Shown: in pieces, positions 9,289-50,361 of the stretch
Numbering within the stretch: the stretch's first letter is position 1
Layout: every line of letters begins with the position of its first letter
IMG/VR virus record: IMGVR_UViG_3300042542_000678
Span: 1-59,458 of that record
Origin: a virus
Taxonomy: Duplodnaviria > Caudoviricetes
DNA length: 59,458 nt
Reading direction: 5' to 3' (one strand)
Made by a program: the position numbers and the translations under genes
Notes under the pieces: generated by a model
The model's input: only the letters and a program-made list of their open reading frames with translations
Told to the model about the DNA's origin: nothing
The model's database searches: none

Positions 9289-9364
9289 TGGTTGCGGAGG
9301 AGGGATTCGAACCCCCGATTCTTGGCTTATGAGGCCAAGCGGATGACCACTTCCATACTCCGCG
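9289..9364 (-). tRNA. tRNA-Met(CAT), initiator-like
   Basis: 76-nt cloverleaf: CGCGGAG/CTCCGCA acceptor (C1:A72 mismatch), TTGGC-CTCATAA-GCCAA anticodon arm, GGGGG-TTCGAAT-CCCTC T arm, encoded CCA. Confidence 0.92.
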
Positions 9365-19621: not shown

Positions 19622-19695
19622 TGGCACACCCCCAGAGATTCGAACTCCGACTAACAGTTTTGGAGACTGCTATGCTGCCGTTACATCAGAGGCAT
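19622..19695 (-). tRNA. tRNA-Trp(CCA)
   Basis: 74-nt cloverleaf: ATGCCTC/GGGGTGT acceptor, GCAGT-CTCCAAA-ACTGT anticodon arm, CGGAG-TTCGAAT-CTCTG T arm, G73, encoded CCA. Confidence 0.88.
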
Positions 19696-21328: not shown

Positions 21329-21358
21329 TTGACAGGGCTATTGAAATGTTTGTATAAT
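21329..21358 (+). promoter_or_regulatory. Early sigma70 promoter P1
   Basis: TTGACA-18 nt-TATAAT. Confidence 0.85.
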
Positions 21359-22200: not shown

Positions 22201-22455
22201 ATGCAAACTATCCGCAACATTCTCGCAAAAGCCGTAGGCTTTACAGTCATTGGTAAGGGCAGCAAGAAACGCCATTACACATTCACATTCAGCGAAGCTG
22301 CTGAGTGGGCAGCATGCTATGGCAGACATGGTGGTGCAAGCATATACAAGGGTGGCATATGGGTAGCATCCAGAGGCAAGCATACGAAACCGCAGGTTTA
22401 TAAAGCTTGGGATGAAAGCCCTAGACTTGACAGGGTTATTGCAAAGTCGTTATAA
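22201..22455 (+). CDS. Hypothetical early protein
   Basis: 84 aa ORF; 3' end runs through promoter P2. Confidence 0.6.
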   Translation: MQTIRNILAKAVGFTVIGKGSKKRHYTFTFSEAAEWAACYGRHGGASIYKGGIWVASRGKHTKPQVYKAWDESPRLDRVIAKSL

Positions 22456-22456
22456 T
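22427..22456 (+). promoter_or_regulatory. Early sigma70 promoter P2
   Basis: TTGACA-18 nt-TATAAT; shares TATAATTGAGGCCGAAACAGC with P1. Confidence 0.85.
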
Positions 22457-22727: not shown

Positions 22728-23483
22728 ATGTTCAAGTCTAAAGCTTTGCTTTCCATCAATGCCGATGCAAAAACTAGCAAGGGTGAAACCTTCGGTTTTC
22801 TGACAGGCATTCTCTATCTAGCACCTTACCTTTCCACAAAGTGGAATACATGCAGCATGGCTAAGATCGCTGAGTGCGGCGAAGCTTGCTTGTACACTGC
22901 TGGCCGTGGTGCGATGTCCACTGTGGCAAATGGCCGTATCAACAAAACCATTTGGTTTTTTACTGAACGAAACAGCTTCATGCAACAGCTTGCTGTAAAC
23001 ATTCGACAGCTAGTGAGCAAAGCTGCTAAGCAAAGCTTAATCCCATTGGTTAGACTCAATGGTACTAGCGACATTCGCTGGGAAAGCGTAGCTTTTACAG
23101 ACACCGATGGTGTGGAATACTCTAGCATCTTCGATGCTTTCCCTACAGTGCAATTCTACGACTACACAAAGGATGTGAATCGTAAGGCTTTGCCTTTAAA
23201 TTACGATCTTACATTCAGCTACAGTGGTGTTGTAGGCTTTCAGCCTTTTGTAAACAAAGCCATTGAAAATGGTATGCGACTCGCTGTTGTTTTCCGTAGT
23301 GTTGCTGCTATACCGAAGGTATTTAAAGGCATGTCGGTCATCGGTGGCGACAACAGTGACATTCGTCACTTAGAGGATAAGGGTGTGGTTGTTGCGCTGT
23401 ATGCCAAGGGCAAAGCGAAGCTTGATATGACAGGCTTTGTCGTTGATGCAGCTAAGCCTGTATTCATGCTGCAAGCCGCCTAA
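22728..23483 (+). CDS. GP88-like protein (Cys cluster, radical-SAM-like)
   Basis: C-x7-C-x3-C cluster followed by AGRG; VRLNGTSDI and QFYDYTK motifs. Confidence 0.65.
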   Translation: MFKSKALLSINADAKTSKGETFGFLTGILYLAPYLSTKWNTCSMAKIAECGEACLYTAGRGAMSTVANGRINKTIWFFTERNSFMQQLAVNIRQLVSKAAKQSLIPLVRLNGTSDIRWESVAFTDTDGVEYSSIFDAFPTVQFYDYTKDVNRKALPLNYDLTFSYSGVVGFQPFVNKAIENGMRLAVVFRSVAAIPKVFKGMSVIGGDNSDIRHLEDKGVVVALYAKGKAKLDMTGFVVDAAKPVFMLQAA

Positions 23484-23659
23484 GCTTAGGCATTCCGTGT
23501 AAGGTTGCGAGTCAGCCTTATGCAGAGTGTCTGTGCCATGATGATGCGAATAGCCATGTGATGATGGGTTGCATTGTGGCACAGGGATCTAGGCCAAGCT
23601 AAGCATATGTTATGCGAGGCAAAAGCCGACTAAGTTGTAGGGTTGTTTTTCTGCAACAG

Positions 23660-23689
23660 TTGACAAGCGAAGCAAGATGTTTGTATAAT
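23660..23689 (+). promoter_or_regulatory. Early sigma70 promoter P3
   Basis: TTGACA-18 nt-TATAAT. Confidence 0.85.
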
Positions 23690-23695
23690 GTAAGG

Positions 23696-23730
23696 GCACT
23701 GATCGTAGTGCAGCAAGTCGCTCTTTAAAA
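23696..23730 (+). promoter_or_regulatory. Hairpin plus boxA-like antitermination site
   Basis: GCACT-GATCGT-AGTGC hairpin, then CGCTCTTTAAAA (cf. boxA consensus YGCTCTTTAACA). Confidence 0.6.
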
Positions 23731-23765
23731 ATCTAATGCTAGTGTCGGTGAGGGTGTGTGTTTCT

Positions 23766-23934
23766 TAGCAGGGCATGCATCACCACTATGGACTAGCCCA
23801 ATCTGTACAGGGTGAATGTACAGGGCATGCTGACATATCATGCTGATAATATGTGAGTGAATCCATTGTGGCTGTTGGGTGATGGCTAGACAATGGGTTT
23901 CAGACAGTGTATTTTGATGCATTGCCTGAAGCTA
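23766..23934 (+). ncRNA. Candidate structured RNA (multibranch)
   Basis: Closing stem CAGG..ATGCATCA / TGATGCAT..CCTG enclosing three hairpins; no credible + strand ORF. Confidence 0.45.
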
Positions 23935-23965
23935 TTTCGCTTCGCTTTCCTATAAGGAAATAAAC

Positions 23966-24394
23966 ATGGCTAAAACAATTATCCCTGTCACTGCTGGTGT
24001 ATCAACATGGGGTGAGAGTGCAGACTGTACAGTCAGGGCACTAGCTAACAGCACTGGTCTACGATATGGCAATGCCCATAACATACTGCGTCAACATGGC
24101 AGGAAAGACAAGCGAGGCTGCACCTGTAATGTGTGGCACGATGCATACATTTCCAATGGCATGTCACTGGTAGGTGTCTACGGCACAACCAAAGGGGCAC
24201 GATACCTAGCGAAGAAGATATCTGTTGTGGCACAGAATGGCACAACCCTTGGCAGCATATTGCCTAAGCTTACAAATGGCAGCTACATAGTCATCATTAC
24301 ACGGCATGCATTGGCTGTGGTCAATGGTGGTGTCGTTGACATGAATTTAAATCGGTCTAACAGCCGTGTCATTGCAGTGTATAAACATTCCTGA
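23966..24394 (+). CDS. Putative papain/C39-like cysteine peptidase-fold protein
   Basis: DCTVRAL (Cys) and RHALAVVNGGVVD (His, Asp) motifs. Confidence 0.45.
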   Translation: MAKTIIPVTAGVSTWGESADCTVRALANSTGLRYGNAHNILRQHGRKDKRGCTCNVWHDAYISNGMSLVGVYGTTKGARYLAKKISVVAQNGTTLGSILPKLTNGSYIVIITRHALAVVNGGVVDMNLNRSNSRVIAVYKHS

Positions 24395-25061: not shown

Positions 25062-25451
25062 ATGAAAGTATTCGTATACTTTAACCTGCACCGCAAGCTG
25101 TTCAGTATCAAGGCACTTGAGGGTGACATGAAGGGGCGTGTCATAGCACATCGTCAACAGGTGCTGCTCAATGATGCGACATTCAAGGTGTCTGAGGCAG
25201 GACGGCAGCGTGTCATCCGTGAGCGGCGTAAGAATGTACATGCTGGTGTCAGTGGCACATGGTTTGGCGATGATGATGTTCAGGGCAGGACTATTGCATT
25301 CACCACCATCAATGGCTCTGCCATTATGTACAACCCTTACAGGTACAGCACATTCGTTCACTTGTATGGTGAGCATCCGATAACATCTGCCCGACTTGTA
25401 GCGCTGAATGTCAGCGACAGCAAGCGTCCATCCATCCACACTTGGGACTAA
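25062..25451 (+). CDS. Conserved hypothetical phage protein
   Basis: VYFNLH...FKVSEAGRQRV.RE.RKNVHA...YNPY motif. Confidence 0.75.
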   Translation: MKVFVYFNLHRKLFSIKALEGDMKGRVIAHRQQVLLNDATFKVSEAGRQRVIRERRKNVHAGVSGTWFGDDDVQGRTIAFTTINGSAIMYNPYRYSTFVHLYGEHPITSARLVALNVSDSKRPSIHTWD

Positions 25452-29113: not shown

Positions 29114-29158
29114 CTAACCCCTAGCAGCAATGTCGCTGTGTCTTTTAAGGAAACTTCA

Positions 29159-30001
29159 ATGTCTAAACATGTCATCTTCTCCCGCAATGCAAACAACACG
29201 GCCCTGACAACAGAGCGCATCCAACAGCTATCCCCTGCTGTGTTTGCCACTACCAAGCATGACCGCTTGACTGATCGTTATGTTGCGCTGCACACTAGCG
29301 ACCTCATCCCTGTGATGCAGGACTATGGATATGCTCCAGTGCAAGCAGCACAGAAGCGTAGCCGTAAGGTAGCTGCTGAGCATTCGGCCCACATGATTGC
29401 CTTTGCTCGTACTATCGACACTGACTTTGCTCAGGGTGATGTGCGTCCTGAAATCATCTTGTACAACAGCCATGATGGCAGCAGCAGCGTCAAGTTGTTT
29501 GCTGGTGCATTCCGTTTCATCTGCTCTAACGGCATCGTTGCTGGTGACGGCTTCCAGAATCGTATGTATCACAACACCTCTGCATTGTCAGGCTTTGAAG
29601 ACATGCTGCGTAACACAGTGGCTAACCTGCCAGCTATGATGGAGCGTATCAACCTGCTCAAGAGTGTGCAACTGTCCAGTGCATCAGCGTATGAGATGGC
29701 TAAGCGTAGCGTTGCTACTCGTTGGGACATGTACGATACACAGGAGAAGGGTGTCTATGCCATCGAGAAAACCATCACCGATGTGCTTGCCATCAACCGC
29801 AATGAGGATGACCACATGGATGCATTCACTGTGTTCAACCGCATTCAAGAGAGCGTCATCCGTGGCAAGGCATTCGTCAAGAGCCTGACTGAGGCAACAC
29901 CATACGGCTCTATCCGTAAGGCTCGACCCATCAACAGCGTGAAAGAAAACATCCGCATCAATGGCGAGTTGTGGGACATTGCTGAAGAGATGGCTGCGTA
30001 A
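29159..30001 (+). CDS. DUF932-family protein
   Basis: NSHDGSSS...AG.FRFICSNG and FNRIQE motifs. Confidence 0.85.
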   Translation: MSKHVIFSRNANNTALTTERIQQLSPAVFATTKHDRLTDRYVALHTSDLIPVMQDYGYAPVQAAQKRSRKVAAEHSAHMIAFARTIDTDFAQGDVRPEIILYNSHDGSSSVKLFAGAFRFICSNGIVAGDGFQNRMYHNTSALSGFEDMLRNTVANLPAMMERINLLKSVQLSSASAYEMAKRSVATRWDMYDTQEKGVYAIEKTITDVLAINRNEDDHMDAFTVFNRIQESVIRGKAFVKSLTEATPYGSIRKARPINSVKENIRINGELWDIAEEMAA

Positions 30002-30069
30002 CTAGTGTAGTACTTGATGCACATCATTTAAGTATGGTGTGCATTGACAACAACACAAGGGGTATATGT

Positions 30070-30900
30070 ATGGATAAAGACTATGCAATTGGCATGTTCA
30101 TTGGCACAGCTATCGGTGATGCGCTTGGCGCACCGCTAGAATTTACACAGCCAAACACAGGGCATCCGCTCACTGAGATGGTGGGTGGTGGCGCTCACGA
30201 TACTGCTGTTGGTGAGTGGACAGATGACACAGCCATGATGGTATGCATTGCCGATGCGTACATCAACTTCAAAACCTTTTCACCGAAGGTGATTGCTAAT
30301 AATTTCGTTGATTGGAAACGCTACGGCACACATGGTACTCGTGACTATTGCTTTGACATTGGCCGTACAACATCTGATGCACTGTCGAGCATTGAGAAGT
30401 CCCGCATCTATGGTGGCAGCACAGACTACAAGACCAGCGGCAATGGTTCTATCATGCGAATGGCAGCTAATGTTATGGTCAATCATCGATGCATGGCACT
30501 GGCTATTGGTGAGTCTGTTGCGACAGCACTGATTACACACGGCACAAAAGACACTGTGCAATATGTATCGGCACTGGCTGAAGAGCTTCATCGTGGCAGC
30601 AGACTGTCTTGCTATGATGGTCTGCGTGTCAAAGGTGCAGCAAAGCCTGATGGTTCTGTGATGGGCTGCTATGCTTCAGCATGGGATAGCATTGCTCGTA
30701 CAACAAGCTTTAAAGACGCTGTTGTACATGCCATCAACAAGGGTGGTGACGCTGACACAGTGGGTGCTGTCACTGGTATGATTGCTGGCCGTATCTATGG
30801 CTACTCTGCCATCCCTCAGCGCTGGCTCGACAAGCTGGTCAAGCATGATGAGTTGCTTGTCATGGCAAACGATTTGTACTATCTGTACGAAGGAGAATGA
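30070..30900 (+). CDS. ADP-ribosylglycohydrolase (DraG/ARH family)
   Basis: GDALG.P.EF, WTDDT, DIG.T, GNGS.MR and GGDADT motifs. Confidence 0.92.
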   Translation: MDKDYAIGMFIGTAIGDALGAPLEFTQPNTGHPLTEMVGGGAHDTAVGEWTDDTAMMVCIADAYINFKTFSPKVIANNFVDWKRYGTHGTRDYCFDIGRTTSDALSSIEKSRIYGGSTDYKTSGNGSIMRMAANVMVNHRCMALAIGESVATALITHGTKDTVQYVSALAEELHRGSRLSCYDGLRVKGAAKPDGSVMGCYASAWDSIARTTSFKDAVVHAINKGGDADTVGAVTGMIAGRIYGYSAIPQRWLDKLVKHDELLVMANDLYYLYEGE

Positions 30901-31175
30901 CAATGAAAAGAATGTGTGACGGGATGGGCGGGAATACCCCTTGCCCACACCCACAGGATTGCACAGTGAGTTGCGGGTTTAACAATGCAGGACTTGATCC
31001 TGTGGAGACTCGTAAGATCAAACCATATCCGTCCGTTCCAGATGATATTGAAGAGCTTAGCATAGAGTGGTACAGCATTGGACAGATGCTTATCGGTGCA
31101 ATATTTGCAGCACTTATAGTGGCGGCTGCGCTTTTAATATTCACTGGTATGTACATAGGCAGGATGCTCATATGA
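30897..31175 (+). CDS. Small membrane-anchored protein
   Basis: AAGGAG SD; C-terminal transmembrane segment. Confidence 0.6.
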   Translation: MTMKRMCDGMGGNTPCPHPQDCTVSCGFNNAGLDPVETRKIKPYPSVPDDIEELSIEWYSIGQMLIGAIFAALIVAAALLIFTGMYIGRMLI

Positions 31176-32269
31176 AACTACCACGCTACCTATTATCCTT
31201 CATCCGCTATGACACTACACACTACCGCTACAACCCTCCAGTAGATGCGATTGATGCTGGTATAGTTGAGCGTAAGGCGTGTGGCACAGACTACGAAGCT
31301 GCTGTCGAGTATGCTGAGAAGCATAATGCAATCATGGACTCGTGGCGTAAGGAACACCGCTACTTAAAAGACTTGTCTGAGAAGTCAAGGGTTGAAGACC
31401 TGTTCAAGTCTTACATCAACAGCATAGGCTACAAAGCCCTGTCTCCAAAGAGCAAGACTGATTATGTCTACTACCTGAAGCAATGGTTTCATGATGCTAC
31501 AGTGTCACAGGAGCTACTCAACACAAGGCTGTGTGACATTGCCACACCAATGTGCCAGCGTATCTACGACAAGCATGCAGAGAACAGTGTTAGCCTTGCC
31601 AATCACACACTGGCAGTCTATCGTTTGTTGTTTAGCTTTGCTATCCGCAATGGCTTTACAAAGCACAACCCCTTCACTGAGGTGAGCAGACGGCAAGACA
31701 AGCCGCGCCGTGTGGTGTGGGAAAAGAAACACATCAAGCAATTCATGGACAAGGCATTCACCAAGTATGAGTGGCGTAACATTGGGTTGCTGGTGTACAT
31801 GGCCTACTCATGGGGTCAGAGGCTAGGCGACATGCGACTGCTCACATGGGACAACTACGATGCTGACACAGGGGTGATGAAGCTGGAGCAGAGCAAGCGT
31901 AGGGCAAGGGTGGAGATACCAACCAGTGCTGCCTTGCGTGAGATGCTGGCACAGCAGAAGGCTGACATTGGCTGGCAGAAGTACATTGTTCCGTCCCCTA
32001 TTGGCGATGGTAGTGGTGGATTTAAACCTTACACCCTATTGCAATTGGCTAAGGTTGGTGGCACAATCATGCGAGAGTCTGGCATACCAGATCACCTTAA
32101 GATGATGGACATGAGGCGAACAGCAGTGACTGAAATGATTGAAGCTGGTGTACCGCTGACCAATGTCATGTCTGTCACAGGACATGCAACAACACACAGC
32201 CTTACACCCTACATTAAGAACACATTAAAGAGTGCATCTGTTGCACAAGATATGAGGGACATGATATGA
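31172..32269 (+). CDS. int: Tyrosine recombinase / integrase
   Basis: GQRLGD (catalytic R), QSK, MDMRRT, GH, PY; probable start MKLPRY at 31172. Confidence 0.88.
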   Translation: MKLPRYLLSFIRYDTTHYRYNPPVDAIDAGIVERKACGTDYEAAVEYAEKHNAIMDSWRKEHRYLKDLSEKSRVEDLFKSYINSIGYKALSPKSKTDYVYYLKQWFHDATVSQELLNTRLCDIATPMCQRIYDKHAENSVSLANHTLAVYRLLFSFAIRNGFTKHNPFTEVSRRQDKPRRVVWEKKHIKQFMDKAFTKYEWRNIGLLVYMAYSWGQRLGDMRLLTWDNYDADTGVMKLEQSKRRARVEIPTSAALREMLAQQKADIGWQKYIVPSPIGDGSGGFKPYTLLQLAKVGGTIMRESGIPDHLKMMDMRRTAVTEMIEAGVPLTNVMSVTGHATTHSLTPYIKNTLKSASVAQDMRDMI

Positions 32270-41141: not shown

Positions 41142-41161
41142 GGGGCTTCGGCCCCTTTTTC
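41142..41161 (+). terminator. Intrinsic terminator before nrdA
   Basis: GGGGC-TTCG-GCCCC followed by T run. Confidence 0.8.
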
Positions 41162-45090: not shown

Positions 45091-45120
45091 AAAGAAAGCC
45101 AGCAACTAAGCTGGCTTTTT
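45089..45120. terminator. Bidirectional intrinsic terminator between the convergent arms
   Basis: A-run, AAAGCCAGC-AACTAA-GCTGGCTTT, T-run between stop codons at 45090 and 45124. Confidence 0.85.
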
Positions 45121-45123
45121 CAT

Positions 45124-48100
45124 TTATCGTCTAGTAGCTAGGCCACCTCTTGCAAGCTTGGGAGTCATCTCCCTCACCTTCTGCAATGACAGCTTTCGTT
45201 TGTCTTCTTTTATTGCGGGTGTGCCAGTAGCATTGTCTGTTGCTGAAAACTCACGAAGTCTATCCCGCAGTTCCAACAGGTTCTTAGCTTTTTGAGTTGC
45301 CCCAACACTTCTAAGAATGTCAGCAACATCTGGCAGTTTATCAACAACGCCTCCGTGAAAAGCATCATCAATAAATTGGTCAATGCTGGATTGATATTGC
45401 TGACCTGTGCCAGAGCGAACAGTACCCTTAGACATGTTCATATAGTCATTCATTAAGTTACGAACAGCCGTGTAGGACTTATAAGCAAACTTAGCAGATT
45501 CTCTTTCATCAAAAGAATCTAAAGCATTGTCCATTAACTCTTTCAATTCATCTCGTGTTTTAATTATTTCAGCTTTTGGTTTAATGCCAATAAGTGCCCT
45601 GTTAAAAACTTCATCTTTAGGGTTAAGAGCTTTCAGTTTAACATTGTTACCTTTAACACTAAGCTTATTAGCTTCAATTATCATATCTTCTGTTTCATTA
45701 AATCCAGCGCGTGGCAATGATATTGGACGAACAAAGTCTGGCACACCAGTAACAGCACGAATAATAGTGTTCATATCCTTAGCATCATATCCCTTTGGTG
45801 GCATGTTGATGCGAGAGAACTTGTAATCAGCATATGGAATATCAGTATACATAAAGTTATCTACATTGCGCCCACCAAAAGAATTGGCATTAAATCCAAG
45901 ATTCAAATCTTTTGTAAATGAAGGACCACCCACATTCATTTCAAAATGTCCAGTTGTACTTCTTGTTGGGTCATAGAATCCAGACCTATTAAGCTTTTCC
46001 ATTTTCTCTGGTAGACCACCATGATACAAGCGAATGGGTGGAACATCTTTATACTGTTCACGCAATTGTTCAAGCTTGTTTTGTAGCCGCATAGCCATGT
46101 CTTTAGCTTCAGCCATTCCCTCTTTAGTCTTAGGTGAAAGTTCTACATTATACTTTGCACGATATTCGCCTAACAATGTACCAAGAACTTCATCATCAAT
46201 GGTAGCAAAGTTGATGTCATCTCGTAGCCTGAAGAAAGAATCTTCTCGCTTGTTCCTAATCTCTTTAATGATTGCATTGCGCTGAGTAACAGAAGTTTTA
46301 TTAACTTGTTTGTTCAAGTCGCCTATATAAATCTTATCGATCTTTTCTTCAGATAGTGATAGTCTTGGTTTAAGGAATGCTTTAATATCTGATATTGAGT
46401 CGCCTATTGGATTTCCATTATCATCGTACAAAACTTCATCCGTCAAAGATGTAGCGCTATCATCTGTCTTCTTACCAAACGGATTTGCTGGCATCTCATT
46501 CCATTTAACACCAGCAGCTTGACCAGTGTACGAGTGAGCAGTACTCATGTAGTCATCGTAGTTGGCAATCTTCCAGTTCTTAACAAACTCTGGAGTGTAG
46601 TTCTCAGCCATCAGCTTTTCACCAGCGGCGTACTGATCAGGGGTAAAGCCACCAGTGGGCGGTATGACATCATCAAGCTGCTTAGAAGCATCTTGCAAGT
46701 CATCTGCCAGATTAGGCATAGGAGCGGTTTCAACAGCAGCAGCAGGGGGAGGCATGACCTCTTCCATTTGACTCGCCATAGGGGCTTCTGGCTCGATTGG
46801 TGGCACTGGCTCAGAGGCAGCAACAGTCTTCTTGGCAGCAGCCTTCTTAACTGTTGGGATAGCTGTAGTTGTTTGAGGAGCAACAGCTGGTGTTGGTAGA
46901 TTCTTATTAAGAATGTTATCAATAGTAGAAGTATCTACAGGAATGTCAGGAGTGTTTATTGTTCTGAGCCTAGATAAGAAGCCTTGAACTGGAATGTTAG
47001 AGGCTGCTTTACCAGCAAACTTAGATGCCATACCACCAACAGCAAACCTTAAGTCACCAAGCATTGCCTTATATGCGTCAACTTGCATATAGTCATTGGC
47101 TTCTTCAAGCGTCTTACCTTGATTGTCTTTGGCATATCGTTCATTAATAACCTTACGCTCATCACTGGTAAGCTTATTAAATTGCATCTTCTTAACACGA
47201 AGAAGATCATCACTCATAAACTTAGCATCGGTAATATCCCGTGCTATGCTAGTCATTTCGCTAACAGAATTACCAAGCGCCATCTTCTGTTCTGTTGGGC
47301 TTAGTTTCTGATATCGCTCATCATTCATTGCCCGTTTAATTGTTTCAATAACTAATGGGTTTGCCGTTTCAACAAAGGCACGATCATAGCTCTTGTCACC
47401 AGACGAAGGACCATACAGCTTGTATGGGTCAATACCAAGTCTAACGATTTCAGATTCAGCAGGAGTCTTTGCTGGAGTTTCACGGACACCCACCAAGCTG
47501 TAGAAGAACTCACCTTCTTTGTACACTGGACCATCACGCAAGCGAGGAACAGCTTCAGGTAAGCTCTCTTTAAGGATTGGCAGCTTGCTTTGAACACGCT
47601 GTGCGCCAGCTTCAACCAACGTAGGAACGGGCATTCCCATAACTGTCTTATCACCAGTGATGACATTAGGGTCACGCTGGATAGAGCCTTCCTCACGGAA
47701 CAAATCAAGAAACTCATAGGCACTCTTGAATACAAACGGCTGTGAGAATCGTGCAGTGAAGTCACCCAATACTTTACCAATTGCAATCTCAAGCTTATCT
47801 GCGTCTTTCTCAGAAGACACAGCAGCGAATACCTGATCAAGTAATTGAGCTTGTGTACCAGCTGGCATTTTCATACCAACAATGGCTTCAACCATTTCAG
47901 CTGTCTTTGGCTCAAGGCCAAGCTTGCGTTTGGCTAAGAAGTCAGCAACGGCAAGTGTTGGTCCAAGCGGAAAGATTGAGCGAGTATCATAAGTACCGCC
48001 ATCATCCTTCTTCATATTAAACCAATCAGTGTCTTGGTTGTTTAGACGATAGTCATACGCAGCAGCAAGCGCTGCCGTACCAACAATACCTTTAGCGATG

Positions 48101-50361
48101 TTCTCTTGACCTTGACGAATCAAACCATCACCGGCATTAGAGCCAGAGGCTTTCATAAGTGCGCCACGATAAATGTCTTCTGCTCCAGATGCTGCACCAA
48201 AAACGCTGTAGCGATATTGGAAGGCAATAGCATTAGACATAAAGCGTGGGAAGGTGACAAGTAAACTACCACCGGGAAATTCAGCTGCCTTAACAAATAG
48301 ATTACCAGCTGCTTCCGCACCGGCTTCAAAGGTTTGAATACCTTTCTTCTGCACCTTCGGTGTATACGAGAAGGTTGCCTTCAGAGTTTCGTCTGTAGCT
48401 TGTTGCAAGATAGATGCAGGAATTGCCTTGCCTTCACCAATTACCTGATACATGTCCATACCAGCACGGCGCATGTGCTTCTCAACAGCAGCGTTAAAGA
48501 TTGCTTTACGGAAGAAAGCATCCTGTGCTACGTTCAATGTGTTAAAGACTTGAGCAGCTTTAGAAAGCTGGTTAGTAGAAGACTCCTGTGTAGCGCTCAA
48601 TAGATTGTTACGCAGAGCAGGATTGTGCTGAAGCAAGTTGTTCGTCACTTCAGTGGACAAACCATTCTTAGCCATATATCCATACACGCTGAATGCGTCA
48701 CGGAATGTATCACCAAGACTGCTCATTGCTGTCTCAACACGCTTACCGCTGGCGGCACCATCCAGTGTTCTGCCAACAGTGTACATTGCCCCTTCAATCA
48801 ACGATCCTGCTGAACTGTAAGTAAGGCCGACTGATGTACCCATAATGTTACGCACTGTAGTACCAATGCCGCTAACAACAAATGCTTTTGATTCACGCTC
48901 TACTGTTCGTATAACTTGACCGATACGCCCAAGGGCAGATACATATTCATCTGGTTTATTAAACAAGCCATCGACAATCTTAGCAGCTTCAGGGTCAATC
49001 TGAGTCATGCGAGTAAGAATCTTAGACGCAGCAGAATATTGCTGCATCACACGAGCAGCATCGGAAACAGTCATCAAGTTTGCTTGTGCAAATTGCTCAA
49101 CACTCAGTCCTTCTCTACGGATGGCTTGTTCAAGAACAGCATCGTCAATGGTGTCTAGATTTGAGAAGACGCTGGCGATAGCGTCACTTGTTTTTTGATT
49201 GGGCTTTAAACGAAAGGTTGGGTCAGCATCAATGACATGCATTGCCACCCGTACAGCACGAGCAGACAAATCACTTTGAATCTTTGAATCAGTTAATGCA
49301 GTGGCAGGGTCAATCTCATCTAAAATCCTACGACCTTCTTGTTTGTTAAACTGAGACACAAGCTCATCCATGTTTTGTGAAATAGGATCAGCAACCATTC
49401 TCTCAAACTCTGTGACAGGAGCATTGGGGTCTTTAGGTACTTTAGCCTTGAGAAGCTTTTCACTAAACTGTTCAGCACCAGACTTACCACCGGTTATAGC
49501 AAGAGCGCCACGGCCTTCAAGGAATCCACCAACACTACCAAACAATGCTGCCACACCTAATTGTGCAGGGTCAAGGTCTTTTGGTTCTTCACGCATTGCC
49601 TTAGCAACTTCTTGCTTCTTCTTTTGTTCAATTACGTTTTGACCAACAGCAAGGCCAGCTTCTGTAGCTGTAGTGACAGCAGTGATGCCAGTAGGTGTAA
49701 GCAAGCTAGCAATCTTAGACTTGGCAGCAGCCTCACCAGCCTCACCAATGATAGCTTTAGTAGCAAGCTCTGTAGCTTCTTTAGCAGCCTTCTTCTTTAA
49801 ACCAGTACCAACACCAAAACCAATATAGTTTGTCAGGTCAGTCAATGCTGCTTTAGCAATGTCTACATATGGACCAGCACCCGGTTGACCACCTTTAGTA
49901 CCAGCGCTTGCAATCTCATCATACAGACGATTACCAAGTGCCAGCTTCTCTTGATCTGGCAAGGGAGAGTTTCGCAGCTTGTTCAGCGCAGCAACATTAG
50001 AGAATGTATTCCATTCTTCACCACGCATGTTAGCCATGAAGCTGTTAACAAACTCTTTCTTGTCAGTGCCTTCCTTGTATGTGGAGTTCATTGCCACTTT
50101 AGAATAGTCAGTGATGACCTTAAAGATTTCGGGATTGCTATACAACTCATCGTAAGTAAACTTAGGCTTGTTGCGCTCAGCTTCTGCTTCTGCGCGGACC
50201 TTCTGAGCAGCATCATCCCTACGAAACGGGCGTGACATCGTGCCAAAGGCTGGCTTAGTTAGATCAACTTCTGGTGCAGGTGGCTTTGCTGGAATTAAAT
50301 CAGCATAGGTGTCTGCACCACCGGCTTTAGCAGCGGGTATCAAATCAGCATAATCAGCCAT
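45124..50361 (-). CDS. Large internal virion (ejection) protein with possible C-terminal ART-like domain
   Basis: 1745 aa, last late gene, mostly helical; RLYHG...PSFT...ETE near the C-terminus. Confidence 0.7.
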   Translation of the reverse strand: MADYADLIPAAKAGGADTYADLIPAKPPAPEVDLTKPAFGTMSRPFRRDDAAQKVRAEAEAERNKPKFTYDELYSNPEIFKVITDYSKVAMNSTYKEGTDKKEFVNSFMANMRGEEWNTFSNVAALNKLRNSPLPDQEKLALGNRLYDEIASAGTKGGQPGAGPYVDIAKAALTDLTNYIGFGVGTGLKKKAAKEATELATKAIIGEAGEAAAKSKIASLLTPTGITAVTTATEAGLAVGQNVIEQKKKQEVAKAMREEPKDLDPAQLGVAALFGSVGGFLEGRGALAITGGKSGAEQFSEKLLKAKVPKDPNAPVTEFERMVADPISQNMDELVSQFNKQEGRRILDEIDPATALTDSKIQSDLSARAVRVAMHVIDADPTFRLKPNQKTSDAIASVFSNLDTIDDAVLEQAIRREGLSVEQFAQANLMTVSDAARVMQQYSAASKILTRMTQIDPEAAKIVDGLFNKPDEYVSALGRIGQVIRTVERESKAFVVSGIGTTVRNIMGTSVGLTYSSAGSLIEGAMYTVGRTLDGAASGKRVETAMSSLGDTFRDAFSVYGYMAKNGLSTEVTNNLLQHNPALRNNLLSATQESSTNQLSKAAQVFNTLNVAQDAFFRKAIFNAAVEKHMRRAGMDMYQVIGEGKAIPASILQQATDETLKATFSYTPKVQKKGIQTFEAGAEAAGNLFVKAAEFPGGSLLVTFPRFMSNAIAFQYRYSVFGAASGAEDIYRGALMKASGSNAGDGLIRQGQENIAKGIVGTAALAAAYDYRLNNQDTDWFNMKKDDGGTYDTRSIFPLGPTLAVADFLAKRKLGLEPKTAEMVEAIVGMKMPAGTQAQLLDQVFAAVSSEKDADKLEIAIGKVLGDFTARFSQPFVFKSAYEFLDLFREEGSIQRDPNVITGDKTVMGMPVPTLVEAGAQRVQSKLPILKESLPEAVPRLRDGPVYKEGEFFYSLVGVRETPAKTPAESEIVRLGIDPYKLYGPSSGDKSYDRAFVETANPLVIETIKRAMNDERYQKLSPTEQKMALGNSVSEMTSIARDITDAKFMSDDLLRVKKMQFNKLTSDERKVINERYAKDNQGKTLEEANDYMQVDAYKAMLGDLRFAVGGMASKFAGKAASNIPVQGFLSRLRTINTPDIPVDTSTIDNILNKNLPTPAVAPQTTTAIPTVKKAAAKKTVAASEPVPPIEPEAPMASQMEEVMPPPAAAVETAPMPNLADDLQDASKQLDDVIPPTGGFTPDQYAAGEKLMAENYTPEFVKNWKIANYDDYMSTAHSYTGQAAGVKWNEMPANPFGKKTDDSATSLTDEVLYDDNGNPIGDSISDIKAFLKPRLSLSEEKIDKIYIGDLNKQVNKTSVTQRNAIIKEIRNKREDSFFRLRDDINFATIDDEVLGTLLGEYRAKYNVELSPKTKEGMAEAKDMAMRLQNKLEQLREQYKDVPPIRLYHGGLPEKMEKLNRSGFYDPTRSTTGHFEMNVGGPSFTKDLNLGFNANSFGGRNVDNFMYTDIPYADYKFSRINMPPKGYDAKDMNTIIRAVTGVPDFVRPISLPRAGFNETEDMIIEANKLSVKGNNVKLKALNPKDEVFNRALIGIKPKAEIIKTRDELKELMDNALDSFDERESAKFAYKSYTAVRNLMNDYMNMSKGTVRSGTGQQYQSSIDQFIDDAFHGGVVDKLPDVADILRSVGATQKAKNLLELRDRLREFSATDNATGTPAIKEDKRKLSLQKVREMTPKLARGGLATRR

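Follow-up and report, generated by a model that had tools for sequence, protein, structure and literature searches.

The non-coding stretch between the promoter at 23660 and the gene starting at 23966 specifies a conserved, folded, untranslated RNA of ~240 bases that lies at the start of a long early operon in a group of freshwater phages. It represents a new, widespread and strand-specific family of structured RNAs, with more than 125 sequence variants in abundant uncultured freshwater phages, and it probably borrows the rRNA antitermination machinery of the host in an undescribed way. The window in which it was found, that is, the whole stretch of DNA analysed here, is a complete IMG/VR virus record of 59,458 bp.

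Setting and architecture of the leader RNA

Genes in the window are directed leftward from ~19.7 kb, rightward from ~21 to 44.6 kb and leftward again from 45.1 kb. The rightward arm holds a GP88-family gene (22728-23483) and genes for a primase-helicase, a family-A DNA polymerase, an exonuclease and ribonucleotide reductase, and is opened by three perfect TTGACA-18-TATAAT sites, at 21329, 22427 and 23660, the leader sitting behind the third. No additional perfect promoter was found on the + arm past 23660. When up to one mismatch was allowed, the window contained four such sites against 0.44 expected, a number reached by none of 100 shuffles. The site at 23660, which the first-pass annotation had singled out as a consensus promoter (P3), matches sigma-70 at all 12 positions. 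The features of the leader and of its transcription unit are as follows.

23660-23689, + strand: promoter P3, TTGACA, 18-nt spacer, TATAAT, 12/12 match to sigma-70
23696-23711, + strand: 5'-terminal hairpin GCACUG/UAGUGC in the centroid fold, at the predicted transcript start
23720-23730, + strand: boxA, GCTCTTTAAAA, perfect match to GYTCTTTAANA
23739-23796, + strand: domain 1, stem P1 (23739-23743 / 23792-23796) enclosing the variable hairpin P1b (23747-23763 / 23771-23787)
23797-23824, + strand: pseudoknot 1, S1 23797-23799 / 23810-23812, S2 23802-23808 / 23818-23824, loops AA, A and UGAAU
23825-23854, + strand: pseudoknot 2, S1 23825-23829 / 23839-23843, S2 23833-23838 / 23849-23854, loop 3 UGAUA
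23855-23861, + strand: purine-rich linker between pseudoknot 2 and P4
23862-23897, + strand: hairpin P4, outer stem 23862-23869 / 23890-23897, inner stem 23871-23875 / 23882-23886, conserved apical loop GGGU(C/G)
23897-23932, + strand: hairpin P5, conserved base GUUU.../...AAGC and variable top, in the minimum-energy fold
23927-23944, + strand: weak terminator-like hairpin P6 from a terminator scan, overlapping the base of P5
23954-24394, + strand: ribosome-binding site AAGGAAA and first gene (start 23966), 142 aa, phrog_3754, a PHROG without assigned function
41142-41155, + arm: strong intrinsic terminator, GGGGC-UUCG-GCCCC plus U run, just before the ribonucleotide reductase genes
45093-45120: bidirectional terminator between the convergent arms, closing the + arm

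The leader is thus ordered as promoter, 5' hairpin, boxA, P1 with its inner P1b, two adjacent H-type pseudoknots, P4, P5 and first gene. The pseudoknots abut, the first ending at 23824 and the second beginning at 23825, and their third loops are both A-rich and nearly invariant (UGAWAAU in pseudoknot 2). From P1 to P5 the RNA measures ~195 nt, or ~237 nt when counted from the predicted start, which we infer from the position of the -10 element; the ~165 nt given in the first-pass annotation have to be revised accordingly. The hairpins named there were all recovered, namely GCACT/AGTGC at the start of the transcript and three downstream (CTGTACA/TGTACAG, ACATAT/ATATGT and CCATTGT../..ACAATGG), the latter three being conserved with compensatory changes; stem P1, the two H-type pseudoknots and hairpin P5 were missing from that drawing.

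Several other features of the window were recorded. The promoters at 21329-21358 and 22427-22456 display extended similarity (TTGACAGGGYTATTG...) and similar initial transcripts (TGAGGCCGAAACAGC..., a hairpin), and neither is accompanied by boxA or by the RNA. The 176-nt spacer between the GP88 gene and P3 (23484-23659) is unusually structured (z -3.89 for a 217-nt fold, with 0/200 shuffles as good) and is common to the closest relatives only. A gene-junction motif, YCTGAAAGRWAAC, is found between 21643 and 25744 and elsewhere on the + strand; in it, the stop TGA lies inside a TTCC/GGAA hairpin that carries the ribosome-binding site. It occurs 10 times at up to one mismatch, against 0.84 expected, and always on the + strand. 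Among the structural genes, a 1745-aa ORF on the - strand (45124-50361) has no Pfam match, and the replication arm of this apparently lytic-style genome encodes a DUF932 protein, an ADP-ribosylglycohydrolase and a phage-integrase-family protein (29138-32269).

Covariation evidence for the fold

The folding energy of the window sequence alone was moderately unusual (-90.3 kcal/mol and z -2.55 for the 270-nt leader in single-sequence folding; z -2.47 on the + strand and -2.07 on the - strand for the 168-nt core), and the case for the structure rests on covariation. The minimum-energy fold of the window consists of local hairpins and the centroid of the 168-nt piece contains a long-range stem; since the two differ, one sequence cannot decide the architecture. 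When 50 distinct sequences were aligned, RNAalifold recovered P1, two long hairpins and P4, with compensatory changes in 24/34 pairs. Inspection of this alignment by eye revealed that, for each of the first two hairpins, the stretch on its 5' side varies in concert with the 5' portion of its loop, which is the signature of an H-type pseudoknot. The loops are of lengths that can span the grooves, with a loop 1 of 2-3 nt over an S2 of 6-7 bp and a loop 3 of 5 nt over an S1 of 3-5 bp.

A covariance model, R1, was built over P1-P4; it comprises nested pairs alone and leaves boxA out. Because R1 cannot encode pseudoknots, the pseudoknot helices were counted separately on the R1 alignment of 100 matches. 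The proportion of cells in which the two partners can pair was compared with that obtained after sliding the partners, and the pairs changed on both sides were counted in three sets of sequences.

Full structure, 38 pairs, 50 sequences: 97.1% of 1885 cells paired; slid partners 31.6-47.8%; 31/38 pairs changed on both sides
Full structure, 38 pairs, 47 sequences (44 distinct): 98.6% of 1664 cells paired; slid partners 29.8-47.4%; 30/38 pairs changed on both sides
Pseudoknot helices only, 100 matches (85 distinct): 97.8% of 674 cells paired; slid partners 28.5-57.8%; 7/8 pairs changed on both sides

None of 500 shuffles reached the observed score in any set, but relatedness among the sequences makes this control overstate significance; sounder evidence comes from the slid partners and from how many distinct pair types occur. 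P1 has changes on both sides in 5/5 pairs, with 99.5% of cells paired. In pseudoknot 1, 7/7 pairs of S2 are compensatory, and S1, which is outside the search model, is paired in 99.2% of cells (85 distinct sequences) with 2/3 pairs compensatory. In pseudoknot 2, S1 has 5/5 compensatory pairs and 96.9% of cells paired, and S2 is 100% paired with 3/6 pairs compensatory. P4 is 99-100% paired, compensatory changes affecting 5/7 pairs of its outer stem and 3/5 of its inner stem. The frequent G-U pairs assign the RNA to the + strand.

Hairpin P1b and the top of P5 are variable. P1b folds locally in 62/62 distinct relatives with full flanks and has an apex ranging from a GUGACAG heptaloop to an inserted hairpin; in L017, L018, L022, L026, L028 and L032 the heptaloop is swapped for an extra hairpin of ~20 nt, and the apex thus tolerates insertions. 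A local hairpin P5, opening within 4 nt of P4, was found in 59/62 relatives (median z -5.1), its conserved base being GUUU/AAGC in 32. P6 is missing in several subgroups (L045, L046, L049, L051, L060 and L079).

The first-pass annotation had proposed a different architecture, in which a ~165-nt multibranched RNA is closed by a long-range stem (23769-23782 / 23915-23928). The complementarity is real in the window, where ATGCATCA (23775-23782) and TGATGCAT (23915-23922), together with CAGG and CCTG, are complementary and form the stem in the 168-nt centroid, though not in the minimum-energy fold. Across the family, in contrast, it stands at chance level. RNAduplex energies were uninformative for the long-range stem and contiguous complements were counted instead: one of at least 7 nt between the P1b and P5 regions was present in 6/62 distinct relatives and in 116/1240 shuffled controls, which is an equal rate. 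Both halves of the stem pair locally in relatives, the 3' half (TGATGCAT..CCTG) being the 3' strand of P5. In L008, which is 92% identical to the window, the alignment reads as an altered 3' half that breaks the long-range stem and leaves P5 able to pair. Chance-level complementarity, local pairing and the L008 sequence together indicate that the long-range stem is peculiar to the lineage of the window, and a multibranched RNA of this kind is extremely unlikely to be the functional structure.

That the element does not code for protein is indicated by the absence of a conserved ORF, any frame being open over the core in 26/85 distinct sequences, and by core lengths of 139-174 nt that leave all three remainders upon division by three (85 distinct sequences). 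Searches of Rfam at gathering thresholds returned from the window the two tRNAs alone, tRNA-Met (CAT) at 9289-9364 and tRNA-Trp (CCA) at 19622-19695, both on the - strand, and left the leader region unmatched. Raising the threshold to E up to 10 added five chance-level matches at E 2.4-9.5 within 23400-24100, with no riboswitch or ribozyme family among them. In line with the expectation of the first-pass annotation, an undescribed structured RNA therefore lies behind the consensus promoter, lacking an Rfam match and strongly covarying in relatives.

Distribution and genomic context in relatives

A blastn search of the region against 50,697 phage records yielded no match. The upstream GP88 protein was then used to scan IMG/VR, yielding 178 relatives of which 80 loci were kept. 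Where the GP88 protein is ~70-80% identical, blastn found the non-coding stretch from boxA (23720) to ~23964 conserved at 72-83% identity. R1 gave 52 matches in the 80 sources, with exactly one copy per locus; the RNA is a single-copy element of its genome. It found no RNA in GP88 relatives of ~65% identity or less, nor in Limnohabitans phage DC31, the nearest cultured relative by GP88 protein (65% identity), or in GenBank MW202701.

Pattern searches independent of GP88 enlarged the family. A 20-mer from the P4 loop identified 64 IMG/VR stretches, all 64 of which were confirmed by R1 (63 at full length and one cut off). A gapped pattern identified 76 viral stretches, with R1 confirming 13/15 additional loci (14 new and one from a related pattern), and 113 metagenomic stretches, with R1 confirming 64 of the 80 loci examined. 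In bacterial and archaeal genomes the 20-mer had 11 contig matches, about the number estimated for chance, and 0 real copies, a scan with one pattern that prophage copies of other subtypes could escape. In 10 of these 11, similarity was limited to the 20-mer; the remaining one, L097, aligns weakly over the full length, lacks pseudoknot 2 and falls in sequence that looks coding. Of 140 pattern-derived RNA loci, 102 have GP88 immediately upstream, 23 lack it despite at least 1 kb of room and 15 could not be judged.

Upstream of the RNA, relatives have a terminator hairpin and then, directly before the RNA, a promoter or a conserved block, an arrangement that makes the RNA the head of a transcription unit. 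Some relatives have a sigma-70 promoter there (TTGACA-18-CATAAT or TATAAT), others a conserved block ending TCTNTATAGGG; in about half of the relatives, the recognisable sigma-70 promoter is replaced by the block ending TATAGGG. Under a strict pattern the TATAGGG block occurs once per locus (12/14 loci), which rules it out as a promoter motif used throughout the phage genome; it may serve the element as a dedicated promoter or be transcribed along with it. Just upstream of boxA in loci such as L036, L046 and L141, the block reads G[GC]AGARTGYYATC...TTCTNTATAGGG and is followed by two small hairpins; its halves AGARK and MTTCT could pair, and the block may thus be transcribed. A hairpin between the promoter or block region and boxA is present in every group, with a sequence that differs by group. 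As to the statement in the first-pass annotation that the phage lacks an RNA polymerase, a search for the T7-type enzyme (PF00940) gave no match in the record or in five complete relatives, a weak negative given that control genomes were silent too.

Downstream, in the window and in relatives alike, P5 is followed by a ribosome-binding site without a conserved U-tract, suggesting that transcription continues into the genes. The first gene 3' of the RNA differs widely among relatives, with at least 10 different N-termini in the 50-sequence alignment, which argues against a gene-specific regulator. One of the genes further down, at 25062-25451 in the window, belongs to the L5 gp82 family (PF25735, phrog_586) and encodes an arginine-rich stretch. 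A gp82-like gene lies 273-2062 nt downstream of the RNA in 47/53 RNA-bearing loci, compared to 4/27 RNA-less ones, an association confounded by relatedness and by the 3-kb flanks. The gp82-like protein was considered as a partner of the RNA and not retained: it has no solved relative and belongs to a PHROG without assigned function, and the protein atlas returned its own family only.

Contigs from four RNA libraries of four studies span the core, for instance 23709-23847, 23743-23876 and 23746-23896. They cover the flanks too, have a depth of 3-4 in three of the four runs and are blind to ends, strand and level; they are compatible with transcription, nothing more.

boxA and the possible role of the RNA

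The boxA reported in the first-pass annotation, CGCTCTTTAAAA at 23719-23730, fits the consensus. Perfect matches to GYTCTTTAANA number two in the window against 0.33 expected, the second being antisense within a reductase gene and probably due to chance. In the family, the boxA core TCYTTAAMAA precedes the start of the R1 match by 4-5 nt in 125/125 distinct instances, each defined by 40 nt upstream plus the core. Since R1 lacks boxA, this invariance shows that boxA is not a chance match. The full GYTCTTTAANA is present in 95 of the 125 instances; in the remaining 30 boxA departs from it, mostly through the second position (GATC...), and the variants in these phages include GTTC, GCTC and GATC. 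This consensus is that of gamma-proteobacteria, according to the available part of PMC5725501. boxA has a predicted unpaired probability of 0.83 in the window and a family median of 0.69, compared to 0.36 for the whole RNA. RNAalifold allows four pairs between its UCUU and the purine linker before P4, an unproven pairing with changes on one side only.

We put at roughly 0.45, on sequence grounds, the probability that the RNA acts in cis as a leader, loading Nus factors and so bringing about processive antitermination. The RNA would be the leader of a long rightward operon made by the host RNA polymerase from a consensus sigma-70 promoter. Its single-stranded boxA would emerge first and be bound by host NusB-NusE (S10), in the manner of rrn leaders and lambda nut sites. 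The ensuing fold (P1/P1b, two stacked H-type pseudoknots, P4 and P5) would remain tethered to the same polymerase and lend the complex specificity or stability, taking the role of the lambda N protein or the HK022 put RNA. The modified polymerase might then resist Rho and intrinsic terminators over the ~21-kb arm, including the terminator at 41142-41155. Nus factor binding, action in cis and antitermination are the parts of this proposal that we infer. A main weakness is the class-B upstream block (TATAGGG). If a different polymerase reads this block, which roughly half of the relatives have, Nus factors would have no part in transcription from it; under T7 polymerase, boxA is reported to be without effect (PMC5725501, available part). 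The silent controls in the search for a phage polymerase weigh in the same direction. Also against it are the 30/125 boxA sequences that deviate from consensus, the lack of a conserved rrn boxC, the 4 bp that boxA could form with the purine linker and the fact that known Nus-dependent systems need no 190-nt fold, which may serve another purpose.

One close parallel is the rrn leader (boxB-boxA-boxC; NusA/B/E/G, SuhB and S4), with which the phage element shares a promoter-proximal boxA identical to consensus, a hairpin upstream of it and, as proposed here, transcription by the host polymerase. In the E. coli rrsH leader, GCTCTTTAACA stands 41 nt after the -10 of a TTGACT-16-TAATAT site, compared to 30 nt in the phage window. 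Unlike rrn leaders, the phage RNA heads a protein-coding operon, lacks a conserved GU-rich boxC and continues after boxA into a ~190-nt conserved fold with two pseudoknots that rrn leaders do not have. Of the rrn-type boxB-boxA-boxC order claimed in the first-pass annotation, boxA and the upstream hairpin were thus borne out; the GT-rich tract exists but is not a conserved boxC, being confined to the window and its subgroup, where it supplies the G-U-rich 5' strand of P1b. Lambda nut and the N protein, including the mEp021 group (PMC11893012, available part), likewise place a boxA in an early phage operon leader and imply host Nus factors. The phage RNA differs from them in having P1/P1b instead of a 15-nt hairpin, with no small A-rich-loop boxB hairpin right after boxA, and no conserved N-like gene adjoins it, the neighbouring genes varying. 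Since a boxC is not conserved and the boxB/N features are not matched, the element is assigned to neither rrn leaders nor nut sites.

The HK022 put RNA, like the phage RNA, is a nascent RNA shortly downstream of early promoters that could modify its own polymerase without a dedicated protein; unlike it, put is described in the available part of PMC9378689 as acting alone, while the phage RNA has an invariant boxA and a larger, pseudoknotted fold. An Rfam search at E up to 10 detected no sequence or model similarity between the two. The conAn2 RNA of conjugative plasmids, as presented in the accessible portion of PMC8191782, is also a large antiterminating RNA at the start of a very long operon, but acts with a protein processivity factor in Gram-positive plasmids, with no boxA reported in that portion and an unrelated sequence. 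The likeness to put and conAn2 is one of concept only. The boxA leaders of the suhB type have a consensus boxA in a 5' untranslated region outside rRNA, located within 50 nt of the start codon and repressing, as far as the available part of PMC5725501 describes them, whereas the phage boxA lies ~235 nt upstream of the start codon in the window and is joined to a conserved fold. A catalogue of candidate RNAs mined from the same IMG/VR collection likewise used intergenic covariation; its models span 29-151 nt, and its main text mentions neither boxA nor antitermination (PMC10690425). No description of the phage RNA was found in the literature, with the proviso that the supplementary lists of PMC10690425 may hold parts of it unnamed.

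The RNA may be an RNA-only processive antiterminator of a new class, in which boxA loads NusB-NusE and the double-pseudoknot fold does the job of lambda N, a proposal that we regard as rather unlikely. It is unlikely that the RNA is instead a regulatory leader, riboswitch or protein-binding attenuator, whose double-pseudoknot fold tunes expression of the operon on sensing a small molecule or a protein of phage or host origin, boxA merely shielding the long untranslated stretch from Rho or aiding repression as in the suhB leader. Such a leader would account for the highly conserved loop and junction nucleotides (UGAWAAU in pseudoknot 2, GGGU in the P4 loop and GUC(G/A)G in P1) and for the 3-5 nt by which the P5 base overlaps the terminator-like P6 in the window and many relatives; boxA elements moreover control ordinary genes, repressing in the case of suhB (PMC5725501, available part). 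P6 is lacking in several subgroups, however, with no family-wide alternative pairing, the downstream genes differ, and matches to riboswitch families are absent even at E up to 10.

Decidedly unlikely is a stable RNA acting in trans, made in bulk and released from the leader to serve as a sponge for NusB-NusE or another host protein or as an anti-defence decoy. Excess boxA RNA can compete for host factor, and the perfect promoter, the compact fold beside an exposed boxA and the coverage of the core by contigs from the four RNA libraries of four studies would agree with such a role. Yet neither a terminator nor a U-tract is conserved behind P5, the RNA in every case leads on to a ribosome-binding site and a gene, and the contigs reveal neither ends nor levels and cover the flanks equally. 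It is very unlikely that the RNA cleaves itself or is a processing element, giving the operon mRNA a defined end by trimming of the 5' leader. Pseudoknotted folds are typical of small ribozymes, of which phages carry many, but no ribozyme family matches here, two separate H-type pseudoknots plus hairpins correspond to no known class, and such a role would not explain the invariant boxA.

Few systems of processive antitermination are known, namely rrn, lambda N and Q, HK022 put, EAR/LoaP and conAn. A widespread phage RNA in which a Nus-factor site without exception adjoins a large pseudoknotted fold would solve the problem in a new way, and would serve as a tool for asking what, beyond boxA, builds a termination-resistant polymerase. 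If the RNA-only proposal is true, the fold would grip the elongation complex or NusA with no need for an antiterminator protein, in a hybrid of the rrn/nut and put strategies. Whatever its function, it is a well-supported new family of structured RNAs with a testable handle, boxA.
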